DNA of 64,000 bases, taken from an uncultured Oscillospiraceae bacterium (GTDB lineage: Bacteria; Bacillota; Clostridia; UMGS1883). Positions 5,980-62,563 of the stretch are shown one piece after another; the stretch's first letter is position 1, and the number at the start of each line of letters is the position of its first letter. The notes beneath the pieces were generated by a model. That model had not been told where the DNA came from. It did not search any database and saw only the letters and a program-made list of their open reading frames with translations. A program made the translations under genes and the position numbers. The stretch lies in contig CAYLPQ010000004.1 of assembly GCA_964385605.1 (NCBI GenBank), positions 6,763 to 70,762 of the forward strand. The letters run 5' to 3'.

Positions 5980-6020
5980 TAATATATTCTTGCGTATTTG
6001 TCAATCAAAAATCGGTCAAA

Positions 6021-6071
6021 GCATAAAATTCCCCAATTTGGGGACAGTCCCCAAATTGGGGAATTTTATGC
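6021..6071. terminator. 51-nt near-perfect palindrome (25-bp arms), likely terminator of the 1170-aa gene; member of a two-copy palindrome family
   Basis: GCATAAAATTCCCCAATTTGGGGAC-A-GTCCCCAAATTGGGGAATTTTATGC. Lies 76 nt downstream of the stop at 6147. Shares the GGGGACAGTCCCC centre and 16/21 arm positions with 41026..41068. Confidence 0.6.
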
Positions 6072-6146
6072 TCTAAACAAAGCTTTAAGAAAATGAGAAA
6101 AGAGATTCGCCCTTTCGGACGAATCTCTTTAATTATGCTTTTATTA

Positions 6147-9100
6147 TCAGTCGTGAAGTTCTGTGTTAGCATATGCAAGAGGTGTGATACCATCCGCATC
6201 TACAACGAAGATCTTAATCTGGTCGTAAGCTGCTGACTCCTTGGGATTTGCAGTACTGAGATTGTTAACAAGACCATTTGCTTCGTCATAACGGTCGCCT
6301 GTACCTGTCTCATCATCCCATGCTGCTGTTTCAGCAAAGTCAACAACACCTGCACCTACAAGCTTATCACCGAGGTATTTAGCTACGATAAGCTTTTCTG
6401 TACCTGCTGCACCTTCAATCCAAGCACCGTTGAGGCAGGCAGCTGAACCAAGTGCAAGGGCGCGGATTGAAACGGGAGCAACAAGTCTTGTAAATGTCTT
6501 AGACTCTGTAATACCGTTAGCAGTTGCTGTAACTGTCATTGTTACTTCCTTGGGAGAAGCTACATTGATTTCTGTTGCAGCCTGACCGTCAACTGTCCAT
6601 GCGATTGCGGGACCGTCTGTTACATATGTGTAACCTGCGGGATTTGCAGCCTTAAGAGCGCCCGATTCATCAAGGTCTCTGTTGAAGAGAGTGCCTGATA
6701 ACCACCATGACTTACCGATTGTCATAGCAGGAAGTGCACAGTTTGTAAGAACAGGCTTGTTATAAGTTGAAGCATAATCGAAGAGTGCTGCATTAAGAGC
6801 TGCATCTACTTCTACAGCATTCTGGTCGTTGTACTTTTTGAGTGTAATATTGTCAGCCCAGATTTCGCCTGTACCACTTAATTCAAGCGAGTAACCTCGG
6901 ATAGCGCTACCACCGTTTGCAGTAAGCTTCATATTAGCCTGAAGGATGGGAAGCTCGTTAAGGAGCTGACCATCAATGTAAACATACATTGTCTGAGAAA
7001 GAACGTTGTGGTCAACCATTACATTAACCCATTCTCCCTCGCCCTTTTCAATAACACTCTGGGGCATATCAAAGTACAATACCCCGCCAGAAGCAACAGA
7101 AAGAAATTTAGCTGCTGCTTCTACCTGTGCTACAGTTGAGTTTATGTGAATTTTTCCGGTGTTGTAATTGAAATAAATGTTTATACCGTTATAACCGGCA
7201 ATAGTCTTGAAGCTGATAGCACCTGAACTGCCAGCAGCACCGTTGTGTGTATACTTAACATCAGCGCTGATAACAACTCTGTCCTTACAGGTACCACCGT
7301 CAATAGTTGAGATAGCCCCGGTTGCCCAATGTTCGGTTGTTGTATTATTAAGGTGAATTACGTTACCGTGTGCAGCATCATCTGCTACGATTTCGGCATT
7401 ACTACCTGTTGATGTAGTAGTATCTGTGAAATCAATAGTATTAACAAGAGTTGTACCATCTGCAACAGGAACAGCAAATGTAACTGTATCACTTACATCG
7501 CCTGCTGTGATTGTAGCAGTCATATTAGCAACAAGGTTTGCGCCCACAGAAGCAAGCTTCGCTAATGTACCGTCATTTGTGATATAAGTTGCGTTATCCG
7601 ATGTCCAGTTAATTGCAACACCGAATGTTGTAAGGTCGTAATCTGCATATCCGTTGTCAAGGTCAAGCTGGTTGCCAACTTCAGAAACTGTACCAATTTC
7701 AGAAGCTTCAACAAGATCCTTAAAGAAAGCAACCTTCTCTGCATCTGAAAGTGTTGCAAGAACGTCAGATTTATCTAATTCTTTATAAAGCTTAATATCA
7801 TCAGCATCAAAAAAGTTGTTAATCTTTGTAACTGTAGCTGCATCTGTTGAGTCAGCATTGTAACGTCCCTTGAAGCTTACAAGTGCAGATGTGATATTTG
7901 CAGGAACTGCCTTGTATGTTTTGTGTGTGCCAACAAGCTGATCATTAATATAACATCTTACAGAGTAACCTGTGTCAACTTCTGCATTTGCATATACCTC
8001 ACACTTGATTGTGTACCAAGTATCCGCAGTAATATTCTTATCTGATCTTGCTGCGCCCGCACCGTGATAATCGTCCCATCCCTTGTCATAGTCATGGTCA
8101 TAGAGATAATCGTTGTAGTAAGAGAATGCTGCAATTTCAAGATCGTTAAGTTCAAGAGTCCAGTTCATAAGACCTGCCTTTACAGGCGCCTTAACCTTTG
8201 CCTCAAAAACAAGTGTTTCACCTGCTGCAAGAGATGCGGGGTATGACTGGAATGTATATTTGGGAACTGATCCGGTGGGCTGATATGCATTAGTTCCGAT
8301 ACGATAGAATTTGTTACCGTTTGCTTCCTGCATTACAGTCATGCTTTCCCACGTTTTGATTGAAGAAGGTGTCCAGCCTGTTGCACCAACGAAGCTGCCT
8401 ACTGCAAGGTTTTCTGCATCTGCAACCTCAGAAACGAATGACTGTGTAAGGGGAAGAACGTATGCAGTATATGTCTTAACAACGTCCTCTGCACCTTCCA
8501 CTGAAAGTGTACCTGTAACAGTAACTGTTGCTGCCTCTGAAATGGGGCGATTAACTGTACCGTCTGCAGCAATTACTGCAGGATTTGATGAAGCCCATGT
8601 AAGAGTTACACCGTCCACAAGCTCTTCACCGGGAGTGAAGTTAAGGTTTGTTGTAAGAGCTGCAAGGTTACCCTCACCTACAACATAGTCTTCTTCAAGA
8701 TACTGTGAATAGTAAGCTGACTTATCTGCAGCGCTTGCATTTGCAAGAACAGTTTCTGCAGGAACAGGCTGATACTCAACCCAGTTATCAATGCTGTAGT
8801 TACCTGTTGCACCATCAGATGCATCTACGATTGTTATGTTTGTAATAACAACCTTTTTAACGTCTGCTGCTGTGTTTTCATCTGTGAAAGTACCCTTTTC
8901 GAAAAGGTTGTTGGCAGAAAGCACTCCGTTACCGTAGAAGTCACCTGTAAGGGGATTGTACTTAATTTCAACATTGCTCTTTCTGTAGGCACCCATCCAG
9001 TAACCGCCCCAACCATTTGAAGCAAGTCTTGAAACAGTCTGACCGGAAATTGCACCAACCTTAGTACCTTCTGCGTTGTATTTCACAGCATCGATTCTAA

Positions 9101-9659
9101 TGTCGATACCTGTAACAACGTTTGCAATGTCCGCTGAATCAAATCTCATTGTGTAAATCTCATCAGATGCAGGAGCCTTGGGTGTATGATAAAGCCATAC
9201 ACGACCACTACCGTCTGTGTGGTTTACAGAGAACTTACCGTCAGCAACAGCACTGCCGCCGTTGTTTGTAGAACCAATGTACCACTCGGGATAGTTTGTG
9301 AATGTGTGTTTGTTTGATGATACAGTTGTAAGAGTCTCCGCTGTAGCGAAGTCTTCGCTGTAAAGCACATTTGTTGTCTGTGCCTTAACCGTAACATCAA
9401 CTGCTGTACCACCGTCAATTGCTACGGAAACAGTTGCATCCTCGAAAAGGGGACGTTTTACTGTACCATCTGTAGCTATAACAGCTTCGTTTGAAGATGT
9501 TATTGCGTGTTCGCCTAATACAAGATTACTTGTAACGAACTTTTGAGGCTGACCATTAGCGATAACTGAAAAATCAACCTCACCTTCTGCCATAACAGTG
9601 AATGTGCACATTGAGAGCACCATCAACACTGAAAGACAGAGTGCCATGAGTTTTTTCAT
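6147..9659 (-). CDS. giant secreted multidomain protein, paralogue A (atrophied-Ig type inserts plus LamG/concanavalin-like jelly-roll modules), function unknown
   Basis: 1170 aa. Signal peptide MKKLMALCLSVLMVLSMCTFTVMA. Repeated motif (W)xSSNxAVIxxDGTVxRP. Recurrent strand-terminal DN(I/W/F)x(V/L)(Y/K) motifs. No SLH, LPXTG or lipobox. First 106 aa identical to the 10910..13363 product. Confidence 0.85.
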   Translation of the reverse strand: MKKLMALCLSVLMVLSMCTFTVMAEGEVDFSVIANGQPQKFVTSNLVLGEHAITSSNEAVIATDGTVKRPLFEDATVSVAIDGGTAVDVTVKAQTTNVLYSEDFATAETLTTVSSNKHTFTNYPEWYIGSTNNGGSAVADGKFSVNHTDGSGRVWLYHTPKAPASDEIYTMRFDSADIANVVTGIDIRIDAVKYNAEGTKVGAISGQTVSRLASNGWGGYWMGAYRKSNVEIKYNPLTGDFYGNGVLSANNLFEKGTFTDENTAADVKKVVITNITIVDASDGATGNYSIDNWVEYQPVPAETVLANASAADKSAYYSQYLEEDYVVGEGNLAALTTNLNFTPGEELVDGVTLTWASSNPAVIAADGTVNRPISEAATVTVTGTLSVEGAEDVVKTYTAYVLPLTQSFVSEVADAENLAVGSFVGATGWTPSSIKTWESMTVMQEANGNKFYRIGTNAYQPTGSVPKYTFQSYPASLAAGETLVFEAKVKAPVKAGLMNWTLELNDLEIAAFSYYNDYLYDHDYDKGWDDYHGAGAARSDKNITADTWYTIKCEVYANAEVDTGYSVRCYINDQLVGTHKTYKAVPANITSALVSFKGRYNADSTDAATVTKINNFFDADDIKLYKELDKSDVLATLSDAEKVAFFKDLVEASEIGTVSEVGNQLDLDNGYADYDLTTFGVAINWTSDNATYITNDGTLAKLASVGANLVANMTATITAGDVSDTVTFAVPVADGTTLVNTIDFTDTTTSTGSNAEIVADDAAHGNVIHLNNTTTEHWATGAISTIDGGTCKDRVVISADVKYTHNGAAGSSGAISFKTIAGYNGINIYFNYNTGKIHINSTVAQVEAAAKFLSVASGGVLYFDMPQSVIEKGEGEWVNVMVDHNVLSQTMYVYIDGQLLNELPILQANMKLTANGGSAIRGYSLELSGTGEIWADNITLKKYNDQNAVEVDAALNAALFDYASTYNKPVLTNCALPAMTIGKSWWLSGTLFNRDLDESGALKAANPAGYTYVTDGPAIAWTVDGQAATEINVASPKEVTMTVTATANGITESKTFTRLVAPVSIRALALGSAACLNGAWIEGAAGTEKLIVAKYLGDKLVGAGVVDFAETAAWDDETGTGDRYDEANGLVNNLSTANPKESAAYDQIKIFVVDADGITPLAYANTELHD

Positions 9660-9697
9660 AGTGTTTTCCTCCTTAAATTTGAGCCGAAGCTCTTTAT
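9341..9697. repeat. left arm of a perfect 357-bp inverted repeat (38-nt leader with RBS plus first 106 codons)
   Basis: I compared blocks of about 60 nt across the whole arm against the reverse complement of 10872..11228 and found no mismatch. Identity ends abruptly at both borders. Confidence 0.9.
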
Positions 9698-9744
9698 TTA
9701 ATTTAAATTAATTTCTTTTATTATGTAATGGAAAAAACTACATT

Positions 9745-9770
9745 TACCACATAATTTGCATTATGTGGTA
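9745..9770. repeat. 26-bp putative recombinase core site, left (TACCACATAAT-TTGC-ATTATGTGGTA)
   Basis: Exact reverse complement of 10792..10817. Internally it has 11-bp symmetric arms around an asymmetric 4-bp centre. Confidence 0.8.
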
Positions 9771-9801
9771 GAGATACTCCTACCTATAATTATACATTTC
9801 A

Positions 9802-9830
9802 AGTATACCTCTGTTTTTCAAATTTGTCAA
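9802..9830 (-). promoter_or_regulatory. outward-facing sigma-A type promoter inside the invertible segment
   Basis: Minus strand TTGACA (9830..9825), 17-nt spacer AATTTGAAAAACAGAGG, TATACT (9807..9802). Located 32 nt inside the left site and 143 nt upstream of the ATG at 9659. Confidence 0.65.
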
Positions 9831-9893
9831 TACTTTGATGTATAATTTTGACAAAAGTATTAAATAAATTTTGTACGCTTTCAAAGAAATTGG

Positions 9894-10733
9894 TTAACAC
9901 CGTAAAAGCCCCAACATTTGAAGTTGTTTTCTGTGTTCAGCCCCTGATTCAACGGTGTAAATCCTCGTGGTATTAATGCTGGAATGACCCAAAACATCAG
10001 CAAGACGGACAATATCTTTTTGCAATGAATAAAAAGTCCTTGCGAAAAGATGACGGAAATTATGCGGAAACACCTTATCCTTTGACACCCCGGCACTTTT
10101 GCACAAAGATTTCAACATTTTCCATATATTTGAACGGTCAAGCGGATTGCCGTTTTTTGTTACAAAAATACTTCCTTTTTGCAAATTTTCTTCCCTTATA
10201 TATTTAACAAGCATTTTGCACAATTGCCCCGGCAGCATTACAACACGCATTTTCCCTTTGCAGTTTATTATTGCTTGCCGTGCTTTCACCGCTCCTACTG
10301 TAATATATTTAAGTTCAGATACTCTGATACCTGTAGAACATATTGTCTGCATTAAAAGCCAGAGCTTTTTGTTACCATCTTTAAGAGCTGCAGAAAGAAG
10401 CTTATCGTATTCTTTCTTGGTAAGTTCTTTTTCTTTATCTGCAAAAATGCGATTTTGAATTTTCAGTGTTTTTACCCGGCAATCACTCCATCCCAAAAAC
10501 TGAAAAAAGCAATTAAGTGACGACAACATAGAGTTTACACTGCGCGGAGCATATTCCCCCGAAATATAATTTTTATATTTAATAACACTCTCTTTGGTTA
10601 CGGTGTTTCCGTTTTGCCATTTTGCAAAAGCTAAAACATCGCGCAGGTATTTCCGGGATGTGGCAGACGACTTTTCCTCGCAAAAAAGATGTTGCCGGAA
10701 GTTTTCCATAGTTTCATCGGTTATTTTATACAT
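9894..10733 (-). CDS. tyrosine-type site-specific recombinase (XerC/D / phage-integrase fold)
   Basis: 279 aa. Catalytic set present: R (TGIRVSEL), K (CKGKMRVV), HxxR (HNFRHLFAR), H (LGHSSINTT), Y (TRIYT). N-terminal SAM-like core-binding domain. Confidence 0.9.
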   Translation of the reverse strand: MYKITDETMENFRQHLFCEEKSSATSRKYLRDVLAFAKWQNGNTVTKESVIKYKNYISGEYAPRSVNSMLSSLNCFFQFLGWSDCRVKTLKIQNRIFADKEKELTKKEYDKLLSAALKDGNKKLWLLMQTICSTGIRVSELKYITVGAVKARQAIINCKGKMRVVMLPGQLCKMLVKYIREENLQKGSIFVTKNGNPLDRSNIWKMLKSLCKSAGVSKDKVFPHNFRHLFARTFYSLQKDIVRLADVLGHSSINTTRIYTVESGAEHRKQLQMLGLLRC

Positions 10734-10791
10734 TTTAAAATCCTTCCTTTCATTTTCTCTTTATTATAACCGAAGCAATTCGATATATTCT

Positions 10792-10817
10792 TACCACATA
10801 ATGCAAATTATGTGGTA
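10792..10817. repeat. 26-bp putative recombinase core site, right (TACCACATAAT-GCAA-ATTATGTGGTA)
   Basis: Exact reverse complement of 9745..9770. Confidence 0.8.
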
Positions 10818-10871
10818 TAAACATATTTTCTGCCACGTTTGCACTTTGAAAATTTAATTAATTTAATTAAT

Positions 10872-11228
10872 ATAAAGAGCTTCGGCTCAAATTTAAGGAG
10901 GAAAACACTATGAAAAAACTCATGGCACTCTGTCTTTCAGTGTTGATGGTGCTCTCAATGTGCACATTCACTGTTATGGCAGAAGGTGAGGTTGATTTTT
11001 CAGTTATCGCTAATGGTCAGCCTCAAAAGTTCGTTACAAGTAATCTTGTATTAGGCGAACACGCAATAACATCTTCAAACGAAGCTGTTATAGCTACAGA
11101 TGGTACAGTAAAACGTCCCCTTTTCGAGGATGCAACTGTTTCCGTAGCAATTGACGGTGGTACAGCAGTTGATGTTACGGTTAAGGCACAGACAACAAAT
11201 GTGCTTTACAGCGAAGACTTCGCTACAG
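10872..11228. repeat. right arm of the perfect 357-bp inverted repeat
   Basis: See 9341..9697. Confidence 0.9.
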
Positions 11229-13363
11229 ATGATGAAGGAACGGTAAGTGGCACTACAAGAAGTTTTAGCTCTTATTCCGGATTTTCAGTGTCTACAGCTG
11301 CGGGAACAACAACAGCAATAGCTGACGGTGTCGTTAAAGTCGATATTGCGGCTGATTATGAAAAAGATGTGAAGGATCGTAGAACAAATTTCTACACTTA
11401 TGTACCGTCTTTTGACAAAACAAAACCTGTAGTAGTTCAGTTTGACGTTGATAACATAACAAACATTGTAAGTTCTTCCGCTGAAATCAGACCTACTTTT
11501 TATGCCTATCCGACGGATGGAAGTTCAAAAGTTGGTTTAGGCACTATTCAGCTTGCTAAACTTTACTCTGCCGGATTCGGAGCATCCAGTTTCTGTTCTT
11601 CTGACGGAGTTCCAAACAGCAAAACAGTAAAAATCCGCTACATTCCTACAACCGGCGAGATTTGGCTTAACGAACAGAAGTTGTCAAAAAATCTCCTTAC
11701 CTTAACGGACGGCGACTTCAGTTACGTAGCTTTAACCGGTATTAACATCTGTTGCGCAGGTAGCAACTGTGAGGCTCAATTTGATTTGGATAACTATGTT
11801 GTATATCAGGAATATTCCATTAATGATGTTCTTCTTAATGCAACAGATGAACAGAGAATCGAATATCTTAAAACTTATCTCACACCCGAAGTATTCGCAA
11901 ACGGACAGAGTCTTGCTTCAGTAGCTTCGAATCTTGTCTTTTCAACAGGACTTGATATGGAAGCTTTAGATGCAACTCTCGAATGGACAACAAGCGATGC
12001 CACAGTGATTGAGACCGATGGTACAATCCATCCAAAGCAGAATACATCTGTTAATGCAACAGTGCAGGGTACTCTTACCATTGGTGAGGAAATAACAGTA
12101 ACAAAGCCCTATAACATCAAGCTCGCGCCTGCCGGAACAATTGAATGTGTCACTGCAAAATTCAATTGGGATTTTGAAGATATGGAAGTAGGCACTACAA
12201 CCTCAACAACTAGTGTTAATACCTATTTAGGTGGTATAAAAGGTATTTACTTCGGTGGTGGAACGCATGAGTTTGTTAACGACTCTGAAAGAGGTATGAT
12301 GCTTAAGTCTACAGACCCGTCTATAATCCAGTTTTCTGCAGGTCAGCGCGGTCCCGGATATAACAAAAGATATGTTTTTGGATTCGACTACAAATTCACA
12401 CTCAAGGCAAATGCAACGTGGCATACTTTCACCACATATATGCGAGGCAACTCCAGTCAGCAAGTCGGATTTGCTTACTCAAATCAAGATGTGACAGTTG
12501 GTGATGTTACAACAAAATACCCTACCAGCGGTGGATATAAGCAGGATACTTTATTCGCAAGCAAGGTTCCTTGCTACAACGAAATAACTGCTCCTGACGT
12601 ATGGCATCACATTGATGTGGATTATAATTCCACCAAGAATGTTTATACTATTTATGTTGACGATAATAAAATCAACGAAATTCCGGGAAGTGCTCAAAAT
12701 AGTGCAGGCTATGTTGCTTACTGGATGCATACTCAACTTGCTAACATAGGAACATTCTATATGGACAATATGTATGTCAATGAATACACCGATTCTGACA
12801 TTGTAAAGGTAGACGGTGCTCTCAGACGTGCAGTATACGATGCAGCAGCACGTGAAACAGGGCAGAGCGGAGAATCCGGACCCTACAGAACAATCAACAG
12901 AACAGACCTTGATTCAGTTATAACAAGCGGTTCTGTTCCCACTCCCCAGACCGACAGTAATGGAGCAGTTCTTACTTGGAAGGTCAACGGAGTAGAACAT
13001 ACAGAAGCAACATACACTGCTCCTTCAGGTGCAAAGAGTGCTACATTTGAGGTAACTGCTTCATACAACGGAAAGAGCGCTTCACATACATTTACAAACA
13101 GATTTGCACCTGTTGAAATTACAGGATATACTTTTGAGGACAGAATTCTTAAGACAGTAACAATAGAAGGCAACTATACTGGTAAGAAGCTCGCAGTAGT
13201 TTCCGTGTCAACTCATAACAACAGTGTAAATAAAGTAAAGCTTGTAGAAATAACAGATACTACCGTTACACTTCCTGATGATTCAATTACCAACAATGGT
13301 AATGAAATTTATTTCTATGTGTTTGACGAAGAAACACTTCTCCCATATGCATTCAAGAGATAA
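10910..13363 (+). CDS. giant secreted multidomain protein, paralogue B (shares N-terminal 106 aa with A, then diverges)
   Basis: 817 aa. Same signal peptide and first domain as A. Built from the same module types (LEWTTSDATVIETDGTIHP motif, DNYVVYQ / DNMYVNEY strand motifs). Shares the C-terminal module ending IYFYVFDEETLLPYAF. Confidence 0.85.
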   Translation: MKKLMALCLSVLMVLSMCTFTVMAEGEVDFSVIANGQPQKFVTSNLVLGEHAITSSNEAVIATDGTVKRPLFEDATVSVAIDGGTAVDVTVKAQTTNVLYSEDFATDDEGTVSGTTRSFSSYSGFSVSTAAGTTTAIADGVVKVDIAADYEKDVKDRRTNFYTYVPSFDKTKPVVVQFDVDNITNIVSSSAEIRPTFYAYPTDGSSKVGLGTIQLAKLYSAGFGASSFCSSDGVPNSKTVKIRYIPTTGEIWLNEQKLSKNLLTLTDGDFSYVALTGINICCAGSNCEAQFDLDNYVVYQEYSINDVLLNATDEQRIEYLKTYLTPEVFANGQSLASVASNLVFSTGLDMEALDATLEWTTSDATVIETDGTIHPKQNTSVNATVQGTLTIGEEITVTKPYNIKLAPAGTIECVTAKFNWDFEDMEVGTTTSTTSVNTYLGGIKGIYFGGGTHEFVNDSERGMMLKSTDPSIIQFSAGQRGPGYNKRYVFGFDYKFTLKANATWHTFTTYMRGNSSQQVGFAYSNQDVTVGDVTTKYPTSGGYKQDTLFASKVPCYNEITAPDVWHHIDVDYNSTKNVYTIYVDDNKINEIPGSAQNSAGYVAYWMHTQLANIGTFYMDNMYVNEYTDSDIVKVDGALRRAVYDAAARETGQSGESGPYRTINRTDLDSVITSGSVPTPQTDSNGAVLTWKVNGVEHTEATYTAPSGAKSATFEVTASYNGKSASHTFTNRFAPVEITGYTFEDRILKTVTIEGNYTGKKLAVVSVSTHNNSVNKVKLVEITDTTVTLPDDSITNNGNEIYFYVFDEETLLPYAFKR

Positions 13364-13375
13364 TTATACGAAATT

Positions 13376-13424
13376 AAACACAAATCCCCCGACGGAATTC
13401 CGTCGGGGGATTTGTGTTTTTATT
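13376..13424. terminator. bidirectional intrinsic terminator between convergent paralogues B and C
   Basis: 20-bp perfect stem AAACACAAATCCCCCGACGG-AATT-CCGTCGGGGGATTTGTGTTT, flanked by A and T runs. Confidence 0.8.
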
Positions 13425-13437
13425 ATTATTTACTTTA

Positions 13438-16400
13438 TTACCAGTCAAGAAGGCCGTCTCTGAATGTCGCAGGACAAATTCCGTTTTCACCCATTACGAA
13501 AATCTTAACTTCTGTAATATCAGGCTCGATTTCTTCTGTATCGGGATTATCTTCCACTGTTCCCGGATGAGGTACACCGATACCCTTAAGAATACCTGTT
13601 TCGGGATTGTAACTCTTTTTGTTGTCTTCGTTAATTTCCTTGTTTGTAAGCTCTGCAAGGTCAAATAACTGAACCCAATCAACCTTTCTGTTATCAAGGT
13701 ATGTCACAACTACAACCTTTTCGTTACCTGTTGCGCCTTCAAGCCATACACCGTTAAGGCAAGACTCTGTACCGAGTGCAAGGCCACGGATAGCTACCGG
13801 AGCAGCCTTTCTGGCAACAGTCTTTGACTCTGTGATACCGTTTGCTGTTGCTGTAACTGTAAATTCTAAAATACCTGCCTGTGCAACATCGATTGAATCA
13901 ACTGCATCGCCGTTAACCTCATAGGTAAGAGCAGGACCGTCTTCTACATAAGTGTAAGTTGAGGGATTTTCAACCTTGATAGAAGGTGTTTCACCTTCAC
14001 CTGTACCGTCAAGATCTCTCTTATAAGCAGAGCCGTTAATCCATGACTTGCCGATTGTCATTGAGGGAAGGTCACAGTTAGTAAGAACAGACTTATATGC
14101 GTCTGAAGCATATTCAACAAGAGCTGCATTAAGAGCTGCATTTACTTCAACTGCATCTGTGTTAGAGAATTTCTTGAGAGAAACATTGTCAACCCACATT
14201 TCACCAGTCTGGCTAAGCTCAATCGAGAAGCCTCTGATTGCACTGCCACCGTTTGCGCCGAGGTCCATCTGTGCCTGAAGAAGGGGAACTTCGTTAACGA
14301 GCTGCCCGTCAAGGTATACTGAATATGTCTGTGAAAGTGCGTTGTGGTCAACAGTAATATGTACCCATTCGCCTTCGCCCTTTTCGATAACACTTGCGGG
14401 CATAGGGAATGTTACAGACTTGTTTGTATCTACAGTCAGAATGCTTGCACTACCGTCAACCCTTACTGTAGTTGTTACAAGCGAAACATTGCCTGTGTTA
14501 TAGTTAAGTCCAACTTGGATACCCTTCTTGCCTGCATAGGTCATAACACCAAGAGCACCGTATGCAGCTTCAGCCTCACCGTGTACATACTTAACGTCAG
14601 CCTCAACAACAAGTCTGTCTCCACGTCCACCGCCGGAAATAGCTGCGATAGTTCTGGACGTATTGTGTCCTGTTGTTTCGTTCTTGAGGTGAAGGACACT
14701 GCCGTGTGCAGCATCGTCTGTTACATAATCAGCTGTGCCTGAAGCAACTGTTGTATCAGAGAAGTCAACTGACTTAACAAGCACTGTACCGTCTGCAAGA
14801 GCAATTTCAATAGTTGAAGCACCACTTTCAGCACCTGCTGTGATTGTAGCTGTCATATCAACAGTTACATTTGTGCCGATTTCAGCAAGCTTGTTAACTT
14901 TACCATCGTTTGAAATATAGCTTTCATCGGATGACTTCCAAGTGATTGTTACACCGAGAGCATCAAGGTCATAATCTGCATATGTAGCATCAAGACCGAG
15001 AGTCTGACCTGCTGTTACGTCAAGGATTTCTGTAGTATCCACAAGTTCCTTGAAGAACGCAACCTTGCCTGCATCATCAAGGCCATCGAGAACAGAATCT
15101 ACTGACTGTGTTGTGTAAACCTGAATATCGTCTGTATCAAAGTAGTATACAGGAGCTGTAGGCTCGGTTATGCTGTCCATGTTGCTACGTCCTGTGAAAC
15201 CAAACTGCGCTGATGTAATTTCTTCGGGAACAGCATTCTTTGTAGAGTGTGTACCTACATTCTTACCGTCGATGAAGCAGTTAACTGTCCAGCCTGTTGT
15301 TGCTGCTGCGTTTTCAGTAATTTCAAGTCTGATATTGTACCAAGTGTCAGCTGTGATGTTCTTATCATTTCTTGCTGTACCGGCACCGTAGTAAGCATCA
15401 TTACCAAGGTCGTAGTCGTTATCATAAAGATAGTTGCTATAGTAGATGAACTCTGCTATTTCACTGTTGTTAAGGTAGAATGTCCAGTTACCTACACCGC
15501 CCTTTACGGGAACCTTAACCTTTGCCTCGAACACGAGTGTTTCACCCTCACCAACTGCGGGGTTAGTTTTGAAAGTATATCTGGGAGTTGAACCTGTTGG
15601 CTCATAAGCACTGGTAGAAATGCTGAAGTACTTATTGCCGTCAGCCTCTTCCTTAACTTCCATAGCTTCCCACTCCTTGATTATTGCAGGAGTCCAACCC
15701 TCTGCACCAACGAAGCTACCTGCTTCAAGGTTTTCAGCATCAACAACTTCTGTTGCGGATGTCATTGAAAGAGGAAGAACCTTTACAGTATATGTCTTCA
15801 CAATATCGTCTGCACCGTCAACCTTAACTGTGCCAGTGATTGTAACAGTCTTCGGTTCAAAGAAAGGACGTGTAACTGTACCATCTGTAGCTATAACAGC
15901 TTCATCGCTTGATTCCCATTCAATAGAAACACCTGCTACAAGCTCTTCATCAGCTTCAAACTTGAGGTCTTTTGTAAGGGCTTCGAAGTTACCGCCGTTT
16001 GCAATGTAATCCGCTGCAAGATACTTTGAATAATAAAGTGACTGCTGTGCAGGAGTTGCGCTCACAAGAACATCCTCTGCAGGAACGTCCTGATATACTG
16101 CAAAGTTATCAATTGTGTATGTACCTGTTGCGCTGTCAGATGCGTCTACAAAAGTCAAGCTTGTAACAGCAACCTTTGCTACATCTTCAGAAGTGTAACC
16201 TTCTTTTATTGTAGCATTGTCTGCAATAAGGTTCTTTGAATAAAGCACACCGTTACCCCAGAAGTCACCTGTCGTAGGATCATACTTCATTGTAACTCCT
16301 GCCTTCTTGTAGCTACCCATCCAGTAGCCACCCCAACCACTTGCAGAAAGTCTCGAAATTGTACCACCATTGTTAATAGAACCGATTATGTCACCGTCTG

Positions 16401-16980
16401 CATCATAAAGAGAACCGCCGAAACGGATATCAATACCTACACCAACATCAGCAATGTCCGCTGAATCAAATTGAATTGTCACAGGTTCATCTGTTTCGGG
16501 AGCAGCAACCTTATGGTAAAGCCATACTCGACCGTCACCGTCAGTGTGATTTGCTGTAAGCTTTCCGTCTGCAATCTTAACATTGTTATTTGCTGAACCA
16601 ATGTACCATTCGCTGTAATCTTCAAATGTGTGCTTGTTAGCCGACTCGGAAACAGCATCATTATCAACTGCGAAGTCCTCCGCATAGAGAACAGACACAG
16701 TCTGAGCCTTTACTGTTACATCGACAGCTTCACCGCCATCGATTGCTACCTGTACAACCGCATCCTCAAAAAGGGGACGTGTTACTGTACCGTCTGTTTC
16801 AATAACAGCCTCGTCGGAAGATGTTATTGTATGACTGCCGAGATCAAGATCAGCAGTTACAAAGTTTACAGGCTGACCGTTTGCGATTTCTGCAAAGTCA
16901 ACCTCTGCTGCCATTGCTGTAAATGAACACATTGAAAGTGCCATTAACATTGCAAGGCAGAGTGCCATGAGTTTTCTCAT
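13438..16980 (-). CDS. giant secreted multidomain protein, paralogue C (full-length homologue of A)
   Basis: 1180 aa. Collinear with A over its whole length at roughly 60-75% identity by eye. Signal peptide MRKLMALCLAMLMALSMCSFTAMA. Confidence 0.85.
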   Translation of the reverse strand: MRKLMALCLAMLMALSMCSFTAMAAEVDFAEIANGQPVNFVTADLDLGSHTITSSDEAVIETDGTVTRPLFEDAVVQVAIDGGEAVDVTVKAQTVSVLYAEDFAVDNDAVSESANKHTFEDYSEWYIGSANNNVKIADGKLTANHTDGDGRVWLYHKVAAPETDEPVTIQFDSADIADVGVGIDIRFGGSLYDADGDIIGSINNGGTISRLSASGWGGYWMGSYKKAGVTMKYDPTTGDFWGNGVLYSKNLIADNATIKEGYTSEDVAKVAVTSLTFVDASDSATGTYTIDNFAVYQDVPAEDVLVSATPAQQSLYYSKYLAADYIANGGNFEALTKDLKFEADEELVAGVSIEWESSDEAVIATDGTVTRPFFEPKTVTITGTVKVDGADDIVKTYTVKVLPLSMTSATEVVDAENLEAGSFVGAEGWTPAIIKEWEAMEVKEEADGNKYFSISTSAYEPTGSTPRYTFKTNPAVGEGETLVFEAKVKVPVKGGVGNWTFYLNNSEIAEFIYYSNYLYDNDYDLGNDAYYGAGTARNDKNITADTWYNIRLEITENAAATTGWTVNCFIDGKNVGTHSTKNAVPEEITSAQFGFTGRSNMDSITEPTAPVYYFDTDDIQVYTTQSVDSVLDGLDDAGKVAFFKELVDTTEILDVTAGQTLGLDATYADYDLDALGVTITWKSSDESYISNDGKVNKLAEIGTNVTVDMTATITAGAESGASTIEIALADGTVLVKSVDFSDTTVASGTADYVTDDAAHGSVLHLKNETTGHNTSRTIAAISGGGRGDRLVVEADVKYVHGEAEAAYGALGVMTYAGKKGIQVGLNYNTGNVSLVTTTVRVDGSASILTVDTNKSVTFPMPASVIEKGEGEWVHITVDHNALSQTYSVYLDGQLVNEVPLLQAQMDLGANGGSAIRGFSIELSQTGEMWVDNVSLKKFSNTDAVEVNAALNAALVEYASDAYKSVLTNCDLPSMTIGKSWINGSAYKRDLDGTGEGETPSIKVENPSTYTYVEDGPALTYEVNGDAVDSIDVAQAGILEFTVTATANGITESKTVARKAAPVAIRGLALGTESCLNGVWLEGATGNEKVVVVTYLDNRKVDWVQLFDLAELTNKEINEDNKKSYNPETGILKGIGVPHPGTVEDNPDTEEIEPDITEVKIFVMGENGICPATFRDGLLDW

Positions 16981-17189: not shown

Positions 17190-19931
17190 TTATTTAAGCA
17201 CTACAAGTATATCACAAAGATGCTGTCTCTGACGGAAACCGTAAATCATTACACTGCCATCACCAATATCTATGTTGCCGTACTTATCAACATTACCTAT
17301 TGTAGGAATCTTTGTCTTGTCACCCTTTGTGATTTCACCTGTTCTGGTATCAAAGATTGTTACATAGGTAGCAGATGATGTTGTTTCAACATAGTATTCA
17401 TTATTTGCGAGAATACCGATAGAGCCATCTGTACCGGAAATGGGGTAACCTATAACATAACCCCATGTTGTTACATCATAGCTCGTTGATGAATAAGGTC
17501 CAAAGCCTTTACGGATTTGAGTTTCATCGCGCTGTGGAGACGCAACCATAATGGTTTTTGAAATTTCCTGTTTTTCGTTGTCAAACTGTATGAGGAATAT
17601 GTCGCCACACTTGACTCCTGTATACCCTTTTTCTTTGAGAGCGGCTTCAAACACTCCCGGAGCATGCTCACGGAATGTCCATATGTTGTTTTTCCAGAAA
17701 CCTGTTACCTGATAACGTTCTTCTCCAAATTCATCGATAATGACCTTGGCTTCTTTAACAGTAAAGGTTCTGTCATCGTAAGAAGATGCTGTCTGACAGC
17801 AAACCATTGCACCTGCCGCCCAATTCTGGTCTGTATCATAAATAGCAACCTGAAGACCCACAAGAGCAAAGCTGCTGTAGGGGACTACCCTTACTTTTGT
17901 TTCGTCTGTAGTTGTAAGCGAACCGGGTTGCTCTATAAGGAATATCTTGGTATTTTTATCGATGATATACTTACCACCGAGATTTTTGCTTGAATATCCC
18001 GCATAGGTTGAATAACTTCCTGTAACAATTTTATTGAACTTGCTCTGGTCAAAACCGTAGGGAGCTTCCTGCGTTGTTATAACAGTATTATCATACTCAA
18101 GCTTTGTAAATTCACCCTTGGAATTAATCTTGATTCTTATAAGCTGGGGAATAAAATTACCGGTTGTGCTGTAAAGGTCAGCACTGTTGACTACAGCATT
18201 ACCGTCATTTTCGTGGGTTCCGGCTGAATCGATAACCGTAAACTTCTTCGCCGCTTTCACAACAAGGCAGTCTCCCTGTTCGTTAACTATTTTAACAGCA
18301 GGTTTATCACCGGCAAGCCTATCTGTCGAGTCACTGCCTACTTCAAGAAGATATGCATACTCCTCACGCAGTTGAACCTCCTGGAACATTCCCGCTTCAC
18401 CGGCAACATTTATATACACAGTATATTTCGCACCTGACACGGGAGCCTTGAGACTTGAATTTTCGTCATTCATTGCCGCCATATACCATGCACCTACACG
18501 GTAAGTGCTTTCGCCCACCTCAATATGCATTATGTCGTTCTCATCAACCACGACACTGTCAATAACCATAGAGCTATTTACTTCACAAATATAAACAATA
18601 AGCTTTGTATAATCCTTTGACTTGTACACTGAAATGAGAGAATCATTTTTTATATCTGCTATTTCAGCCTCTTCACCTGCTAAATTATAGAAGTGAACAA
18701 CCTCATACTCTTTGTAAAGGATGGGGTCAGCATAATTGCTGTATATTGCTCCGGTAATAGTATTTACAGTTTTTACAAGGTAGTCCTCAAAAGTTTCTGC
18801 AACGATTGTTTCATACTCATTATTCATATCTGCATCAATAAGAGTAAGCTTACCTGTAGGAATTTTGAGCGTTTCACCGACAAATGACGGATATGCTGAA
18901 CCGTTATAGATTAAATCCGCATATATGCTAACCTTAACTTCTTCATTCTTACCTTTTGCATTCTTGTAAACAATGTTGCTCTTTGTGAATTTGTCAGAAT
19001 CTGTAGCAAGGTCATACGCATCTATAACTAAAATATTGTTCCTTGCTGTATCTGTGTAAGCATGTAAAAGTTCCTTTGTGCTACCGTCTCTGTAATAAGC
19101 AACCACACTTCTTCCGATAAGACCGGTAAATTTTTCAGCAACATTGACCATTCTCACACCGTCAATAACAGCAGTGCCGAGGCCTGATGCACTTTTAGAG
19201 CTGAGAGCTGTCTGTCCGTTGTCTGTCATTATACCTTTCCGCTTATAAATACTGTGGTAAACACCTAAAAAATCCAGATGTTCTTTATCTGTATAAGTAG
19301 AAGCCTGATAGGACACAGACTCCAGCACCGGAACCTTCGCGTCAAGAACAGCATCAATCATAAGCACTGCATCATACATTGTAAGGTCACGGTCATAGTC
19401 CGCTGCACCGCTTCTTAAAATGCCAAGATCGATTGCCTTTTTAAGATAACCTGTATAGTATCCGCCATAAAGCTCCGCAAGGTCCTTATAGCCAAGACCT
19501 GAAACAAGAACTTTTATAGCCTGTGCATAGGTAACTTTATTATCGGGCTTAAACTCAACATTATTCACTCCGACCATAAGACCCATTTTCTTAAGGGCTA
19601 TGATTGCTGTAGCATTTGTAGTAAGCTCTTTTACGTCAACATAGGGGTTTTCTGCAAATGATGCTTCGTAAAGATAATTACCAAGCACCTTTTCCATTAC
19701 TCCGGCAAATTCCGCTCTTGAAAGTGTTTCATCTGCATCTTTATCCAATTCTGGGAAAACACCTAAATCAAGAAGCATTTCCAGCTTGCTTTCAAAGGAG
19801 GCAAGCTCTGACTCTGAATACAGGGATTCTACAGTTTCAGCAGTCTCTTCTGCAGAGCCGATCACAAAATTCATCTGCGTAAACAGCAGTGTAAGCGCCG
19901 CTATGATAGCGATTAATCGTTTATTACGCAT
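17190..19931 (-). CDS. SLH-domain cell-surface protein, function unknown
   Basis: 913 aa. Signal peptide. Three N-terminal SLH-like repeats (e.g. YVDVKELTTNATAIIALKKMGLMVGVNNVEFKPDNKVTYAQAIKVL). The large C-terminal region is uncharacterised. Confidence 0.75.
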   Translation of the reverse strand: MRNKRLIAIIAALTLLFTQMNFVIGSAEETAETVESLYSESELASFESKLEMLLDLGVFPELDKDADETLSRAEFAGVMEKVLGNYLYEASFAENPYVDVKELTTNATAIIALKKMGLMVGVNNVEFKPDNKVTYAQAIKVLVSGLGYKDLAELYGGYYTGYLKKAIDLGILRSGAADYDRDLTMYDAVLMIDAVLDAKVPVLESVSYQASTYTDKEHLDFLGVYHSIYKRKGIMTDNGQTALSSKSASGLGTAVIDGVRMVNVAEKFTGLIGRSVVAYYRDGSTKELLHAYTDTARNNILVIDAYDLATDSDKFTKSNIVYKNAKGKNEEVKVSIYADLIYNGSAYPSFVGETLKIPTGKLTLIDADMNNEYETIVAETFEDYLVKTVNTITGAIYSNYADPILYKEYEVVHFYNLAGEEAEIADIKNDSLISVYKSKDYTKLIVYICEVNSSMVIDSVVVDENDIMHIEVGESTYRVGAWYMAAMNDENSSLKAPVSGAKYTVYINVAGEAGMFQEVQLREEYAYLLEVGSDSTDRLAGDKPAVKIVNEQGDCLVVKAAKKFTVIDSAGTHENDGNAVVNSADLYSTTGNFIPQLIRIKINSKGEFTKLEYDNTVITTQEAPYGFDQSKFNKIVTGSYSTYAGYSSKNLGGKYIIDKNTKIFLIEQPGSLTTTDETKVRVVPYSSFALVGLQVAIYDTDQNWAAGAMVCCQTASSYDDRTFTVKEAKVIIDEFGEERYQVTGFWKNNIWTFREHAPGVFEAALKEKGYTGVKCGDIFLIQFDNEKQEISKTIMVASPQRDETQIRKGFGPYSSTSYDVTTWGYVIGYPISGTDGSIGILANNEYYVETTSSATYVTIFDTRTGEITKGDKTKIPTIGNVDKYGNIDIGDGSVMIYGFRQRQHLCDILVVLK

Positions 19932-19957
19932 GTGTTATCACCCTTGCCTTTCCTTTC

Positions 19958-21748
19958 TTATTTTATTATTATCTCATAAATAATTTTTGCAGCCTGTGCT
20001 CTTGTAAGAGTACCCATCGGGCGGAAGGTTTCATCCTCAAATCCATTGATTACAGCAGAGCTCTCAAGCGAAGCAACCGCTTCTATTGCATAATCTGAAA
20101 CCGAATCCGAATCCTTAAAGCTGAGCGCATCTGATTTTGTAACAGTCTTTTTCATAACGTTACAGAATCTGTAAGCCATAACTGCTGCATCCTGTCTGGT
20201 AAGAGTTGCCGCAGGCTTAAATGTATTGTCGGTGTAGCCTGAAACAATACCTCTGGAAACGGCACTGGCGATATAAGCTTTTGACCATCTGTCTGCAGCA
20301 ACGTCAGCAAATGTAGTGTCAATTTCTTCATTATATATATCGCCTGCTACAATAAGCATTTTAACAAACTGCTCACGTGTTACAAGGTCATCGGGGGCAA
20401 ATCCGCCATTTTCAAAACCTTCAACTATACTCATTTCAGCAAGAGTCTGAACTGCGGTATATGCCCAGTGTTCTTTTACAACATCACTGAATTTCTGTTC
20501 CATCTCGTCATTAGGAAGATTTTGTTCGATTACATCAGAACCTATTGTTATGTTATCAGCTATGTATCCGTTATCAATGGTTCCGACTGTGCTGCTAGGG
20601 AGGCTTCCGCCGCCACCGCCGCCTCCGCCACCGCCGGAGCCGCCTTTCTTCTCTTTAAGATATGCAATACCTTCAGCATAAGCCGCTGTCACATCAGAAG
20701 GAAGCTCAAAGTTTCTTTCAACAAAAGCCTTATTCACCTCTGCTGCAGAATACTTTTTGCACTGCTTCGCATGGTCCTTCATATCTACACCAAGGATTTC
20801 GCCGTATTCTTCAAGAATATCCGTAGCTGTTTCTGCATCGCATCCGTTAATTGCTACAACACCCTTGCTCTGCTCAAACACCTTGCGTGCATCAAGCATT
20901 GAACGCGGAACATATTTGCCCTTTTCCGAACCTTCCGCAATCGAATTGAGAAATATCTTTGCAACGGCTGTTTTATCATCTGTATAATCCTCATTTTCAA
21001 TGTCGATACCGAGAATATCTGCATTACTTTCAAGAATTTCGATAAGCTCTGCAGGTGTTTCTGCCGCATACATATCACGGAAAATGCCTATTGCAGAGAA
21101 TGTATCCTGAACTTTATACATTTCACCCGCTGCATAACCGTCGGGGTAGTCATCAGTCTTAATCGATTCAAAAAGGCTGTTAATTACATCCTTGTTATCT
21201 TCGTAATCGCCTGCAACATCAACACCAATAAGAAGCTCCTTCTCACGGATTAGAGGTTCAACAGTATCTTTTGTTGCTTCGTTAAATGCAGGAATTGTAA
21301 CTGTATTGATTGAGTTTACGTTTTCAAAGTAGATAAACTCTGAATCTTTTGAAATCGCGCTTCTGTAACCGCCGCCTGATGCTGATACCATATAGTATCC
21401 GGCGGTAAGGTCAGCAAGTTTAAATTCTGCACTGAAGTTACCATCAAGGTCGGCAGTCACATTTTTGATTTTCTTAATATTCATTACACTTAAAGGATAC
21501 TGGGGTTCGGGATTAAGTCTGTCGGCAACATCCGCCATACCCGTAATAGTCTCCTCGGGTGCGTAAATTACGATTGACACGTTCTGCCCGTAAAGAGCGG
21601 GAGTCACACCCGTTATTGTAATCTTTTCATTGTCATAGTCAATGAGGGGTGTTATCTCAAAATCAGCGGCAGATGCATTAATCACCACTAGATTCATGGA
21701 TAACGCAAACATAAGACAAATGATAAGGCTTAAAATACGCTTTTTCAT
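19958..21748 (-). CDS. SLH-domain cell-surface protein with poly-Gly linker
   Basis: 596 aa. Signal peptide. GGSGGGGGGGGGGS linker. Three canonical C-terminal SLH domains (FSDVVKEHWAYTAV..., FADVAADRWSKAYI..., FKDSDSVSDYAIEAV...). Confidence 0.8.
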   Translation of the reverse strand: MKKRILSLIICLMFALSMNLVVINASAADFEITPLIDYDNEKITITGVTPALYGQNVSIVIYAPEETITGMADVADRLNPEPQYPLSVMNIKKIKNVTADLDGNFSAEFKLADLTAGYYMVSASGGGYRSAISKDSEFIYFENVNSINTVTIPAFNEATKDTVEPLIREKELLIGVDVAGDYEDNKDVINSLFESIKTDDYPDGYAAGEMYKVQDTFSAIGIFRDMYAAETPAELIEILESNADILGIDIENEDYTDDKTAVAKIFLNSIAEGSEKGKYVPRSMLDARKVFEQSKGVVAINGCDAETATDILEEYGEILGVDMKDHAKQCKKYSAAEVNKAFVERNFELPSDVTAAYAEGIAYLKEKKGGSGGGGGGGGGGSLPSSTVGTIDNGYIADNITIGSDVIEQNLPNDEMEQKFSDVVKEHWAYTAVQTLAEMSIVEGFENGGFAPDDLVTREQFVKMLIVAGDIYNEEIDTTFADVAADRWSKAYIASAVSRGIVSGYTDNTFKPAATLTRQDAAVMAYRFCNVMKKTVTKSDALSFKDSDSVSDYAIEAVASLESSAVINGFEDETFRPMGTLTRAQAAKIIYEIIIK

Positions 21749-21753
21749 TGTGC

Positions 21754-61860: not shown

Positions 61861-61861
61861 T

Positions 61862-61893
61862 AAAAAGGACTTTGCGGATGCAAAGTCCTTTTT
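61862..61893. terminator. bidirectional intrinsic terminator
   Basis: AAAAAGGACTTTGC-GGAT-GCAAAGTCCTTTTT. Confidence 0.8.
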
Positions 61894-61894
61894 A

Positions 61895-62563
61895 CTATTT
61901 GTTAACATTTTTTCTTAAATTCTCCATTTTAAGATCCAGCTCTGCACTCATCTCGGCACATCTATAGAGTTCTTCCGCCATTTCCTCTGTAAAAATAACA
62001 TCCTTTTTGTATCTGAGCTGATGCTCAAGTGTTGCCCAAAAATCCATTGCTATAGTTCTTAACTGAATTTCCGCACACATAATCCGCTTTTCGTGAGCAA
62101 GGAAAATAGGTATTGCTACGATAATATGCAAGCTTCTGTATCCGTTAGGCTTGGGATTTTTTATGTAATCCTTCATTTCTACCAAAGTTATATCATCCTG
62201 CTTCAAAAGGGCATTTGCCAGTGCATAAACATCCTCCGGAAAAGAACAGATTACCCTTATCCCCGCAATATCGTTGAGATTTTCTTCTATAGCATTAAGA
62301 GTAACCGGTAAACCTCGCCTTTCAAGCTTTCCTTTAATGCTGGGTAAAGATTTCAGCCTTGTTTTTATGCTGTTTATAGGATTACGGTCAAATTCCAGCG
62401 AATACTCCTCATCAAGAACCCGTAACTTGGTTTCAATTTCCATCATAGCACATTTATAATAGCTCATCAATTTCATATAAGGGATTGCCGCATCATGTAA
62501 ATATTCAAATGCTTCTTTATTTAAATACATTTTTTCCATAGCATCTTTATCATTTAGATTCAA
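61895..62563 (-). CDS. small alarmone synthetase (RelA/SpoT-domain GTP pyrophosphokinase, RelQ/RelP type)
   Basis: 222 aa. Motifs GIRVICSF, YRSLHIIV and EIQLRTIAMDFWATLEH. Confidence 0.88.
   Translation of the reverse strand: MNLNDKDAMEKMYLNKEAFEYLHDAAIPYMKLMSYYKCAMMEIETKLRVLDEEYSLEFDRNPINSIKTRLKSLPSIKGKLERRGLPVTLNAIEENLNDIAGIRVICSFPEDVYALANALLKQDDITLVEMKDYIKNPKPNGYRSLHIIVAIPIFLAHEKRIMCAEIQLRTIAMDFWATLEHQLRYKKDVIFTEEMAEELYRCAEMSAELDLKMENLRKNVNK

Follow-up and report, generated by a model that had tools for sequence, protein, structure and literature searches.

A putative two-output invertible promoter cassette with its own tyrosine recombinase in an uncultured gut Clostridia bacterium

Between two paralogous genes for large secreted proteins, in a 64-kb stretch of DNA from an uncultured gut Clostridia bacterium, lies a gene for a tyrosine recombinase together with a near-consensus promoter, and both are enclosed by two exact, inverted copies of a 26-bp sequence (the whole stretch is referred to as the window, and positions are window coordinates throughout). 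This arrangement raises the question of whether the enclosed segment is inverted by the recombinase and, if so, whether its orientation determines which of the two neighbours, here called gene A and gene B, is expressed. We consider it probable that the locus is a site-specific inversion switch, in which the recombinase flips a promoter segment of 1,021 bp and thereby selects gene A or gene B. That the feature is real, as a site-specific invertible cassette, is well supported by the sequence comparisons described below, and a two-output toggle is most likely the way in which it acts.

Sites, recombinase and promoter of the cassette

The left site (9745..9770) has the sequence TACCACATAAT-TTGC-ATTATGTGGTA (full site TACCACATAATTTGCATTATGTGGTA) and recurs as its exact reverse complement, TACCACATAAT-GCAA-ATTATGTGGTA, at 10792..10817. 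An initial annotation of this DNA had described the two copies as an exact inverted pair of recombination sites and had suggested a search for more of them. The pair was confirmed by the repeat itself and by a copy search of the window, in which only the two known copies were found with up to 3 mismatches allowed (0 in 100 shuffles). Each site is made up of 11-bp arms and a 6-bp T-NNNN-A centre with 4 variable nucleotides, and it can also be read in an 11-6-11 format as ...ACCACATAA-TNNNNA-TTATGTGGT... The chromosomal dif site has the sequence GGTGCGCATAA-TGTATA-TTATGTTAAAT, which we take the 26-bp site to resemble, and a dif-like site fits the Xer-like nature of the recombinase. The putative invertible segment between the sites (9771..10791) holds the recombinase gene and the outward promoter, and the whole unit including the sites measures approximately 1.07 kb.

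The recombinase, a presumed invertase of 279 amino acids, is encoded on the minus strand (9894..10733). It matches the Pfam domains Phage_integrase (PF00589; 4.7e-27) and Phage_int_SAM_1 (PF02899), a SAM-like N-terminal domain, and it aligns with the XerA/XerC-like structure 4a8e of the PDB (2e-23) such that R, K, HxxR, H and Y coincide with the catalytic residues; the complete catalytic set that had been read from the translation earlier is thus upheld by the alignment. Searches of Pfam and NCBIfam with this enzyme detected tyrosine-recombinase domains only and no serine recombinase domain. Its scores remain below the NCBIfam equivalog cut-offs for XerA (146.5 versus 220), XerD (131.6 versus 329.6), XerC (109.9 versus 335) and XerS (64 versus 267), and also below those of the FimB/FimE-type subfamilies (PRK09870, 31.6 versus 221 bits; PRK09871, 26.2 versus 222). 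A housekeeping XerC/D acting at dif was ruled out by the NCBIfam scores and by the presence of two inverted dif-like sites, 1 kb apart, which flank the gene, where a chromosome-dimer resolvase would have one dif site per replicon, located at the terminus. Judged by these comparisons, the recombinase is neither a housekeeping Xer protein nor a Fim-type invertase. It is a member of a very large group, with at least 7,968 homologues at E<=1e-60 in the protein database.

The best promoter-like site between positions 9300 and 11300 is a predicted sigma-70-type promoter, TTGACA-17-TATACT, on the minus strand (9802..9830; 11/12 consensus match). It begins 64 nt past the recombinase stop codon, its -10 element is 31 nt from the left site, and it is directed outward through this site toward the ATG of gene A at 9659. 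The initial annotation had pointed out this near-consensus element, and its assignment as an outward promoter gains support from the conservation of its position in the family of switches described next.

Inversion at the 26-bp sites in related genomes

By scanning one genome per species we obtained 80 homologous loci with recombinases 53-80% identical to that of the window, almost all of them from uncultured gut Clostridia, Oscillospiraceae and Lachnospiraceae; cultured hosts are Bengtsoniella, Chakrabartyella and Faecalicatena contorta. At 66 of the 80 loci the recombinase is accompanied by a CCACATAAT-N4-ATTATGTGG site pair, whose arms are conserved down to 53% protein identity. The 4-nt centres, by contrast, are highly variable (35 strand-collapsed variants among the 66 loci), yet they are reverse-complementary within every single pair, and the TTGC/GCAA pair of the window fits this rule. 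Loci without a matched pair mostly have a contig edge near the switch, and at one of them (L060) the pair is off by 1 base. Conserved arms combined with variable but pair-matched centres identify the repeats as probable inversion sites of a tyrosine recombinase, because neither an operator nor the loop of an RNA hairpin has such a requirement.

This covariation also bears on the possibility that no inversion takes place at all and that the palindromes are shared operators, leader hairpins or terminators derived from duplicated 5' regions, with the recombinase as a passenger. The palindrome is indeed located at a similar distance upstream of both start codons and in the same sense, and it forms an 11-bp hairpin, closed by a GCAA loop, which is terminator-like on the minus strand. 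However, the pairing of sites and recombinase persists in enzymes of as little as 53% identity and next to downstream genes of unrelated kinds, an operator or a hairpin loop does not call for reverse-complementary changes of the centre, both orientations of the segment occur between the sites (see below), and a role as a known structured RNA receives no support from an Rfam scan of positions 9200-11400, in which no meaningful match was found. We therefore regard this explanation as very improbable.

The usual layout in this family is represented by 61 loci with a matched pair, all with recombinases of at most 68% identity, and it differs from that of the window in that both sites are downstream of the recombinase gene. 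The first site usually lies within about 20 nt of the recombinase stop codon (farther in some loci) and the second some 200-300 nt beyond it (median 239, range 196-467). The short segment between them holds a consensus or near-consensus TTGACA-17-TATAAT promoter whose -10 element typically ends 34-37 nt from one segment end. This promoter points away from the recombinase at 12 loci and toward it at 42, its direction being unclear at the remaining 7. The most direct indication of inversion in the usual layout is provided by L077 and L079, which have near-identical flanks and a 207-bp segment that is 97.6% identical only when reverse-complemented (31% otherwise). On this evidence, the loci with the usual layout are to be considered bona fide ON/OFF invertible promoters.

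Only in the closest relatives of the window's recombinase (74-100% identity; protein clusters P0001-P0009 and the loci L001-L004 and L084-L092), referred to as the window clade, does the recombinase gene lie between both sites. One site is thus upstream of the recombinase start, at a distance of approximately 80-90 nt in most members and farther away in L084-L088, and the segments have a length of 1.0-1.4 kb, with 1.97 kb in L084 as the longest. At the promoter end the spacing typical of the family is retained, as in the 31 nt between the -10 element and the left site of the window. The 26-bp site is identical in most genomes of the clade though the adjoining intergenic DNA differs, and in L002 both centres have changed together, to TTGA/TCAA. 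Where the loci extend far enough, genes facing outward and sharing a leader are generally found on both sides; the exception is L090, where just one side has an outward gene and the other, the recombinase-5' side, keeps a Y-type flank remnant (see below) but no such gene.

Evidence for inversion within this clade comes from a comparison of the loci after orienting them by the recombinase. Positions 24-9937 of L002 match the reverse complement of positions 20325-10463 of L004 at approximately 85% over about 10 kb, and the far right flank of L002 matches the reverse complement of the left flank of L004 at 81%, while the inner segment is co-linear between the two loci and the flank alignments end exactly at the inner edge of the sites. 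The short stretches between each site and the leader shared by the outer genes behave likewise. In the window these are a 31-nt flank next to the left site (9714..9744, minus strand), termed X, which stays with gene A, and a 38-nt flank next to the right site (10818..10855, plus strand), termed Y, which stays with gene B; the two are not homologous to each other. Between L002 and L004, identity of the X and Y patches is higher in crosswise pairing (88.9% in both cases) than in straight pairing (64% and 71%), whereas the inner ends pair straight (83% and 82%). The patches of the window pair straight with those of L004 and crosswise with those of L002 and L003, so that the homologous segment is inverted relative to its syntenic flanks both in L002 versus L004 and in the window versus L002. 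The promoter faces the X-flank gene, the orthologue of gene A, in the window, L004 and L090, and the Y-flank gene in L002 and L003. As each outer gene keeps its X or Y flank, the crossover is placed in the 26-bp site and not in a longer repeat formed by the 5' regions of the genes. These comparisons indicate that the recombinase-containing segment has been inverted on an evolutionary scale and at the 26-bp sites, and together with the covariation of the centres at 66 loci they substantiate the role as inversion sites which the initial annotation had assigned to the pair.

The longer repeat deserves consideration, as inversion might mainly be RecA-dependent and take place between the 5' ends of the two genes, as reportedly at the sap locus of Campylobacter fetus, with the sites and the recombinase being secondary or vestigial. 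Its two arms, 373 nt in length and 99% identical, comprise the shared leader, the ribosome-binding site and codons 1-106 of gene A (9341..9713, minus strand) and of gene B (10856..11228, plus strand). They bracket the same promoter as a near-perfect inverted repeat, which would be a good substrate for RecA, and the abrupt drop in identity at codon 106 indicates recent gene conversion between the arms. Nevertheless, inversion mainly by this route is quite unlikely: the X and Y flanks remain with the outer genes, both in L002 versus L004 and in the window versus L002 and L003, which puts the breakpoints at the 26-bp sites, and the covariation of the centres argues for selection for site-specific exchange. 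Moreover, the long repeat has an overall identity of 95% in the window but of just 75-88% in relatives which have kept perfect sites, and we thus rejected the 373-nt repeat as a required part of the mechanism. Residues 1-106 of the two proteins are identical and then diverge abruptly (about 46% identity over residues 1-403), a pattern suggestive of a gene-conversion tract that is recent and sharply bounded; the near-identity of the repeat in the window would then reflect paralogy and recent gene conversion in this lineage. A repeat of this quality could support occasional RecA-mediated inversion in the window as an additional route.

The comparison with relatives also speaks to the possibility that the 1.07-kb unit inserted between the paralogues as a small mobile element, a transposon with a tyrosine recombinase and terminal inverted repeats. 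The perfect terminal inverted repeats and the recombinase as the only encoded protein would be in line with a transposon, as would the variable cargo in the clade, where L084 has acquired a HEPN/nucleotidyltransferase pair inside the repeats. Yet the copies of the clade all occupy one type of locus, flanked by outward-facing paralogues that share a leader, the window contains a single copy in 64 kb, and in the parent family the recombinase gene lies outside the segment bounded by the repeats, an arrangement incompatible with a transposon. Insertion of a transposon is therefore hardly credible. The additional gene pair of L084 (positions 1-2032 of this locus, from the Logan assembly of SRR14307643) is located between one site and the recombinase, and the same recombinase is present in L085 and L086 without this cargo.

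One promoter for two paralogous genes

Gene A (6147..9659, minus strand) encodes a protein of 1,170 amino acids with a signal-peptide-like N-terminus and immunoglobulin (Ig)-like domains of the aBig_2 type (Pfam, 1.8e-26), and gene B (10910..13363, plus strand) encodes an 817-residue paralogue, likewise with aBig_2 domains. A shared leader and N-terminus of A and B had been recognized in the initial annotation; the statement was correct but too modest, given the 373-nt, 99% identical inverted repeat described above. A third paralogue, gene C (13438..16980), is 72-80% identical to A and B in the N-terminal shared region. The leaders of both A and B also contain a GAGC-UUCG-GCUC hairpin (9672-9683 and 10886-10897), approximately 12 nt upstream of the ribosome-binding site and about 1 nt before the AAGGAGG box.

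Outside the segment, no promoter-like site with at least 10/12 matches faces gene A or gene B in the region 9300-11300, whereas gene C possesses a promoter-like site of its own, TTGACT-17-TACAAT. The lack of a comparable promoter outside the segment for A and B, unlike C, supports their dependence on the invertible promoter. With paralogues facing outward on both flanks, and with the evidence for the sites and for inversion, a toggle between two outputs is the best reading of the locus. In such a switch, the 279-residue recombinase would bind the two dif-like 26-bp sites, and strand exchange in their matched central region would flip the 1,021-bp segment including the recombinase gene and the promoter. 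In the orientation seen in the window, transcription from the promoter would cross the left site and the shared leader and enter gene A; in the inverted orientation, transcription from the same promoter would cross the right site and enter gene B. Cells would consequently express one of two large secreted Ig-domain proteins, which have a common signal peptide and the first 106 residues in common and differ thereafter. Four points of this scheme are inferred, namely catalysis by this recombinase, activity of the promoter, flipping in the strain of the window, and silence of the gene which is not selected.

Alternatively, the switch might be real but work as an ON/OFF switch for gene A only, or in an asymmetric manner, with gene B either transcribed from a weak promoter of its own in the Y flank or always silent, so that expression of A and B would not be mutually exclusive. 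A candidate for such a promoter is TTGAAA-16-TAATAT (9/12) at 10846-10873, which faces gene B, begins in the last bases of the Y flank and runs into the shared leader, and whose TTGAAA is conserved in the Y flanks of relatives. An asymmetric switch would also agree with the ON/OFF function of the parent family and with L090, where a Y-type remnant is kept with no outward gene on that side. On the other hand, 9/12 matches occur at chance level (7 found versus 6.4 expected), A and B share leader, ribosome-binding site and N-terminus while neither is equipped with a near-consensus promoter like that of C, and in L002 and L003 it is the Y-flank gene that the strong promoter faces. We consider a switch restricted to gene A, or an asymmetric one, unlikely, if less so than the alternatives discussed above.

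The weak site in front of gene B is one of several observations that weigh against a toggle operating in the strain of the window. In the predicted leader RNA, the 26-bp site folds into a hairpin of 11 bp closed by a GCAA loop, and in the leader of gene A a run of T follows about 8 nt after it; hairpin and T-run together could attenuate transcription. The palindrome also scores as terminator-like on the minus strand. Since transcription passes through the site in the whole family, we take the hairpin to be tolerated rather than to act as a terminator. In addition, a clear promoter of the recombinase gene was not identified in the scan of 9300-11300, where the candidate elements are a conserved TATAAT approximately 24 nt inside the right site and a 9/12 match spanning the junction (10836..10807). 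The inversion between relatives, moreover, is a difference between separate species-level genomes and thus attests to historical flipping, not to its current frequency.

Reads and contigs from metagenomes bear on the question of flipping in the strain of the window. No reads with both orientations were found for the window's own strain; a scan of Joint Genome Institute (JGI) metagenomes for the 26-mer recovered only two unrelated family members with the usual layout. Neither the product of gene A nor that of gene B had an exact entry in the contig index, and a look-up of the identical recombinase returned one contig only, a 1,081-nt Logan unitig (L001). This unitig, which ends at the site boundaries, is 100% identical to positions 9741-10817, and its right site is followed by 4 bases that repeat the left flank in reverse complement, as would be expected if both orientations were present. 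Its length, however, equals 1,021 + 2 x 30, the signature that an inverted repeat of at least 31 nt leaves in a k=31 assembly graph and which is documented in L084-L086 with their 54-nt repeat. Being ambiguous in this way, and with the inverted repeat as the simpler explanation, L001 was dropped as evidence for mixed orientations. A second unitig (L092; 1,091 nt, SRR28204438, 78% identity) stops 1 nt beyond both sites. It is possible that these ends reflect the presence of both flank types at both segment ends in this sample, which would be due to inversion within the sample or to a mixture of strains.

The cassette is probably derived from the common ON/OFF module of Clostridia, in which the recombinase gene is followed by an invertible promoter of approximately 240 bp. 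In the window clade the recombinase-proximal site would have shifted from a position directly behind the gene to one directly in front of it, thereby enclosing the gene in the segment. We put forward only tentatively, as a view with slightly less than an even chance of being right in full, that the locus is a self-contained and symmetric toggle which is never OFF, that it arose once by relocation of this one site, and that the pair-matched centre serves as an address which prevents recombination among paralogous switches.

Relation to known switches and further features of family and window

The initial annotation had taken the locus for an undescribed kind of system. This view could not be maintained, as the locus represents a derived layout of a very large clostridial family of ON/OFF invertible promoters. 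Members with the usual layout share with the window a homologous recombinase (53-68% identity), the same arms with a matched centre, and a consensus promoter approximately 35 nt from the segment end. They differ in having both sites downstream of the recombinase and a segment of about 200-300 bp which switches one gene ON or OFF, whereas in the window one site is upstream of the recombinase, the segment comprises 1,021 bp, and an outward gene is present on each side. In a defined gut community, inverton group 139, linked to invertase group 35, was described with 33 invertons, 32 of them from Clostridia (PMC11892184). This group has 26-bp repeats around a 205-bp segment in Clostridium sp. D5 (inverton at 3525576-3525832), an adjacent tyrosine recombinase and orientation shifts at the level of reads; an inverton of Intestinimonas DSM 26588 is given at 1750639-1750893 (PMC11892184). 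The CCACATAAT-N4-ATTATGTGG family is probably the same as inverton group 139 with invertase group 35, a match of geometry and taxonomy; the site motif itself had no match in the accessible portions of text and supplement (PMC11892184). A literature search for the motif returned matches to unrelated primers only, and we found no published description that combines a tyrosine recombinase and promoter within the cassette, dif-like sites and two divergent paralogues as outputs.

The individual elements of this combination are familiar from better-known switches. In Escherichia coli, the invertible element fimS, which carries the promoter for a surface structure, is flipped by the tyrosine recombinases FimB and FimE. 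Unlike in the window, these recombinases are encoded outside the 314-bp segment, switching is ON/OFF only, and there are accessory sites for IHF and Lrp. The Hin/hix system of Salmonella consists of a segment of approximately 1 kb between 26-bp inverted sites, in which the recombinase gene lies together with a promoter that points outward at a gene for a surface structure. It is thus similar to the window in having recombinase and promoter inside a segment of about the same size with sites of the same length, but Hin is a serine recombinase acting with a Fis-bound enhancer, the promoter has its target on one side, and the alternative flagellin is controlled via a repressor. The closest functional analogue is the sap locus of C. 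fetus, where, reportedly from work of Dworkin and Blaser in the 1990s, a single invertible promoter between opposed surface-protein paralogues with conserved 5' ends selects the paralogue, so that inversion picks one of two genes. There, in contrast to the window, inversion takes place in the conserved 5' regions and is said to be largely RecA-dependent, and the segment contains secretion genes; the window clade has dedicated 26-bp sites and a recombinase, with breakpoints that fall at the sites in our comparison.

Two features by which the initial annotation had set the locus apart from most known switches thus have precedents, namely alternation between two genes by inversion, which is reportedly realized in sap, and a recombinase inside its own switch, which is known from Hin. 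Alternation is also described for Ureaplasma parvum (PMC3047005), and a recombinase within its own switch for a putative element of Providencia (PMC5903667). The Ureaplasma loci MBA/UU376 and UU172/UU171, as well as Vpma/Xer1 of Mycoplasma, alternate neighbouring surface-protein genes by inversion at short repeats, which is attributed to Xer-like recombinases (PMC3047005, PMC2268961). In these Mollicutes, which we liken to the window by their description, the recombinase gene is located outside the invertible cassette and the sites are in or next to coding regions, so that chimeric genes are possible.

If the toggle is real, uncultured gut Clostridia would make an obligate either/or choice between two large secreted Ig-domain proteins by means of a 1.07-kb module, and such a choice would bear on how gut commensals adhere to surfaces and evade phages or the immune system. 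The locus would appear elegant, if not very surprising, to a specialist in phase variation; its architecture and the family-wide covariation of the centres are attractive and lend themselves to direct tests. The comparative result may outweigh the single locus: a very large family, in which Xer-like recombinases go together with dif-like inverted sites of conserved arms and pair-matched centres, constitutes a clean natural data set on the evolution of site specificity and partner choice in tyrosine recombinases. The window clade, in turn, would illustrate how a single rearrangement can give an ON/OFF switch a second output, and the small cassette could serve as a genetic part.

Among the loci with the usual layout, the first gene after the switch encodes a TetR-family regulator in 19 of 47 loci (L005-L081) and an Rrf2 regulator in 3; several others encode large surface proteins with SLH, Flg_new or dockerin domains. 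The regulators suggest that these switches control phase-variable regulons, and with the TetR type as the commonest cargo, such regulons might be common in gut Firmicutes. Inside the segments of L077 and L079 (10856-11062 in both loci) there is a GC-rich hairpin followed by a T-run on the strand opposite to the promoter. As a terminator, it would keep transcripts of the recombinase gene from running on into the downstream gene in the OFF state. Additional tandem copies of the site with the same centre, approximately 33 nt apart and on one or both sides of the segment, are present at ten loci (L016, L029, L049, L052, L055, L059, L062, L066, L068, L074) and may be accessory binding sites or alternative crossover points. 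Some metagenome-assembled genomes harbour two or three pairs of recombinase and switch, i.e. CAKSSN01 (L039, L048, L057), CAYQKW01 (L034, L042; one site found at L034) and CAYPIJ01 (L044, L051). The centres differ between the two switches of CAYPIJ01 (CGGT/ACCG versus CGTC/GACG), whereas L039 and L057 have the CAGT centre in common. The site centre may insulate switches within one genome from each other.

The window itself has the appearance of ordinary chromosome, with genes for a YlqF-type GTPase, RNase HII, a signal peptidase and oxidoreductases, and no signs of a phage or plasmid were seen in its gene content. It encodes many large secreted proteins with aBig_2, SLH and Flg_new domains. 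Adjoining the cluster of aBig_2 paralogues are three consecutive genes for SLH-domain proteins (17190-24678), and a further aBig_2 protein (34904-38740) and a Flg_new protein of 1,801 amino acids (52838-58243) are encoded farther downstream, which makes the region dense in cell-surface genes. Perfect palindromes with arms of 22-26 nt are located downstream of gene A (6020-6072), between the convergent genes B and C (13376-13419), and downstream of the open reading frame at 59500-61860 (61852-61903); all three are probably bidirectional intrinsic terminators.

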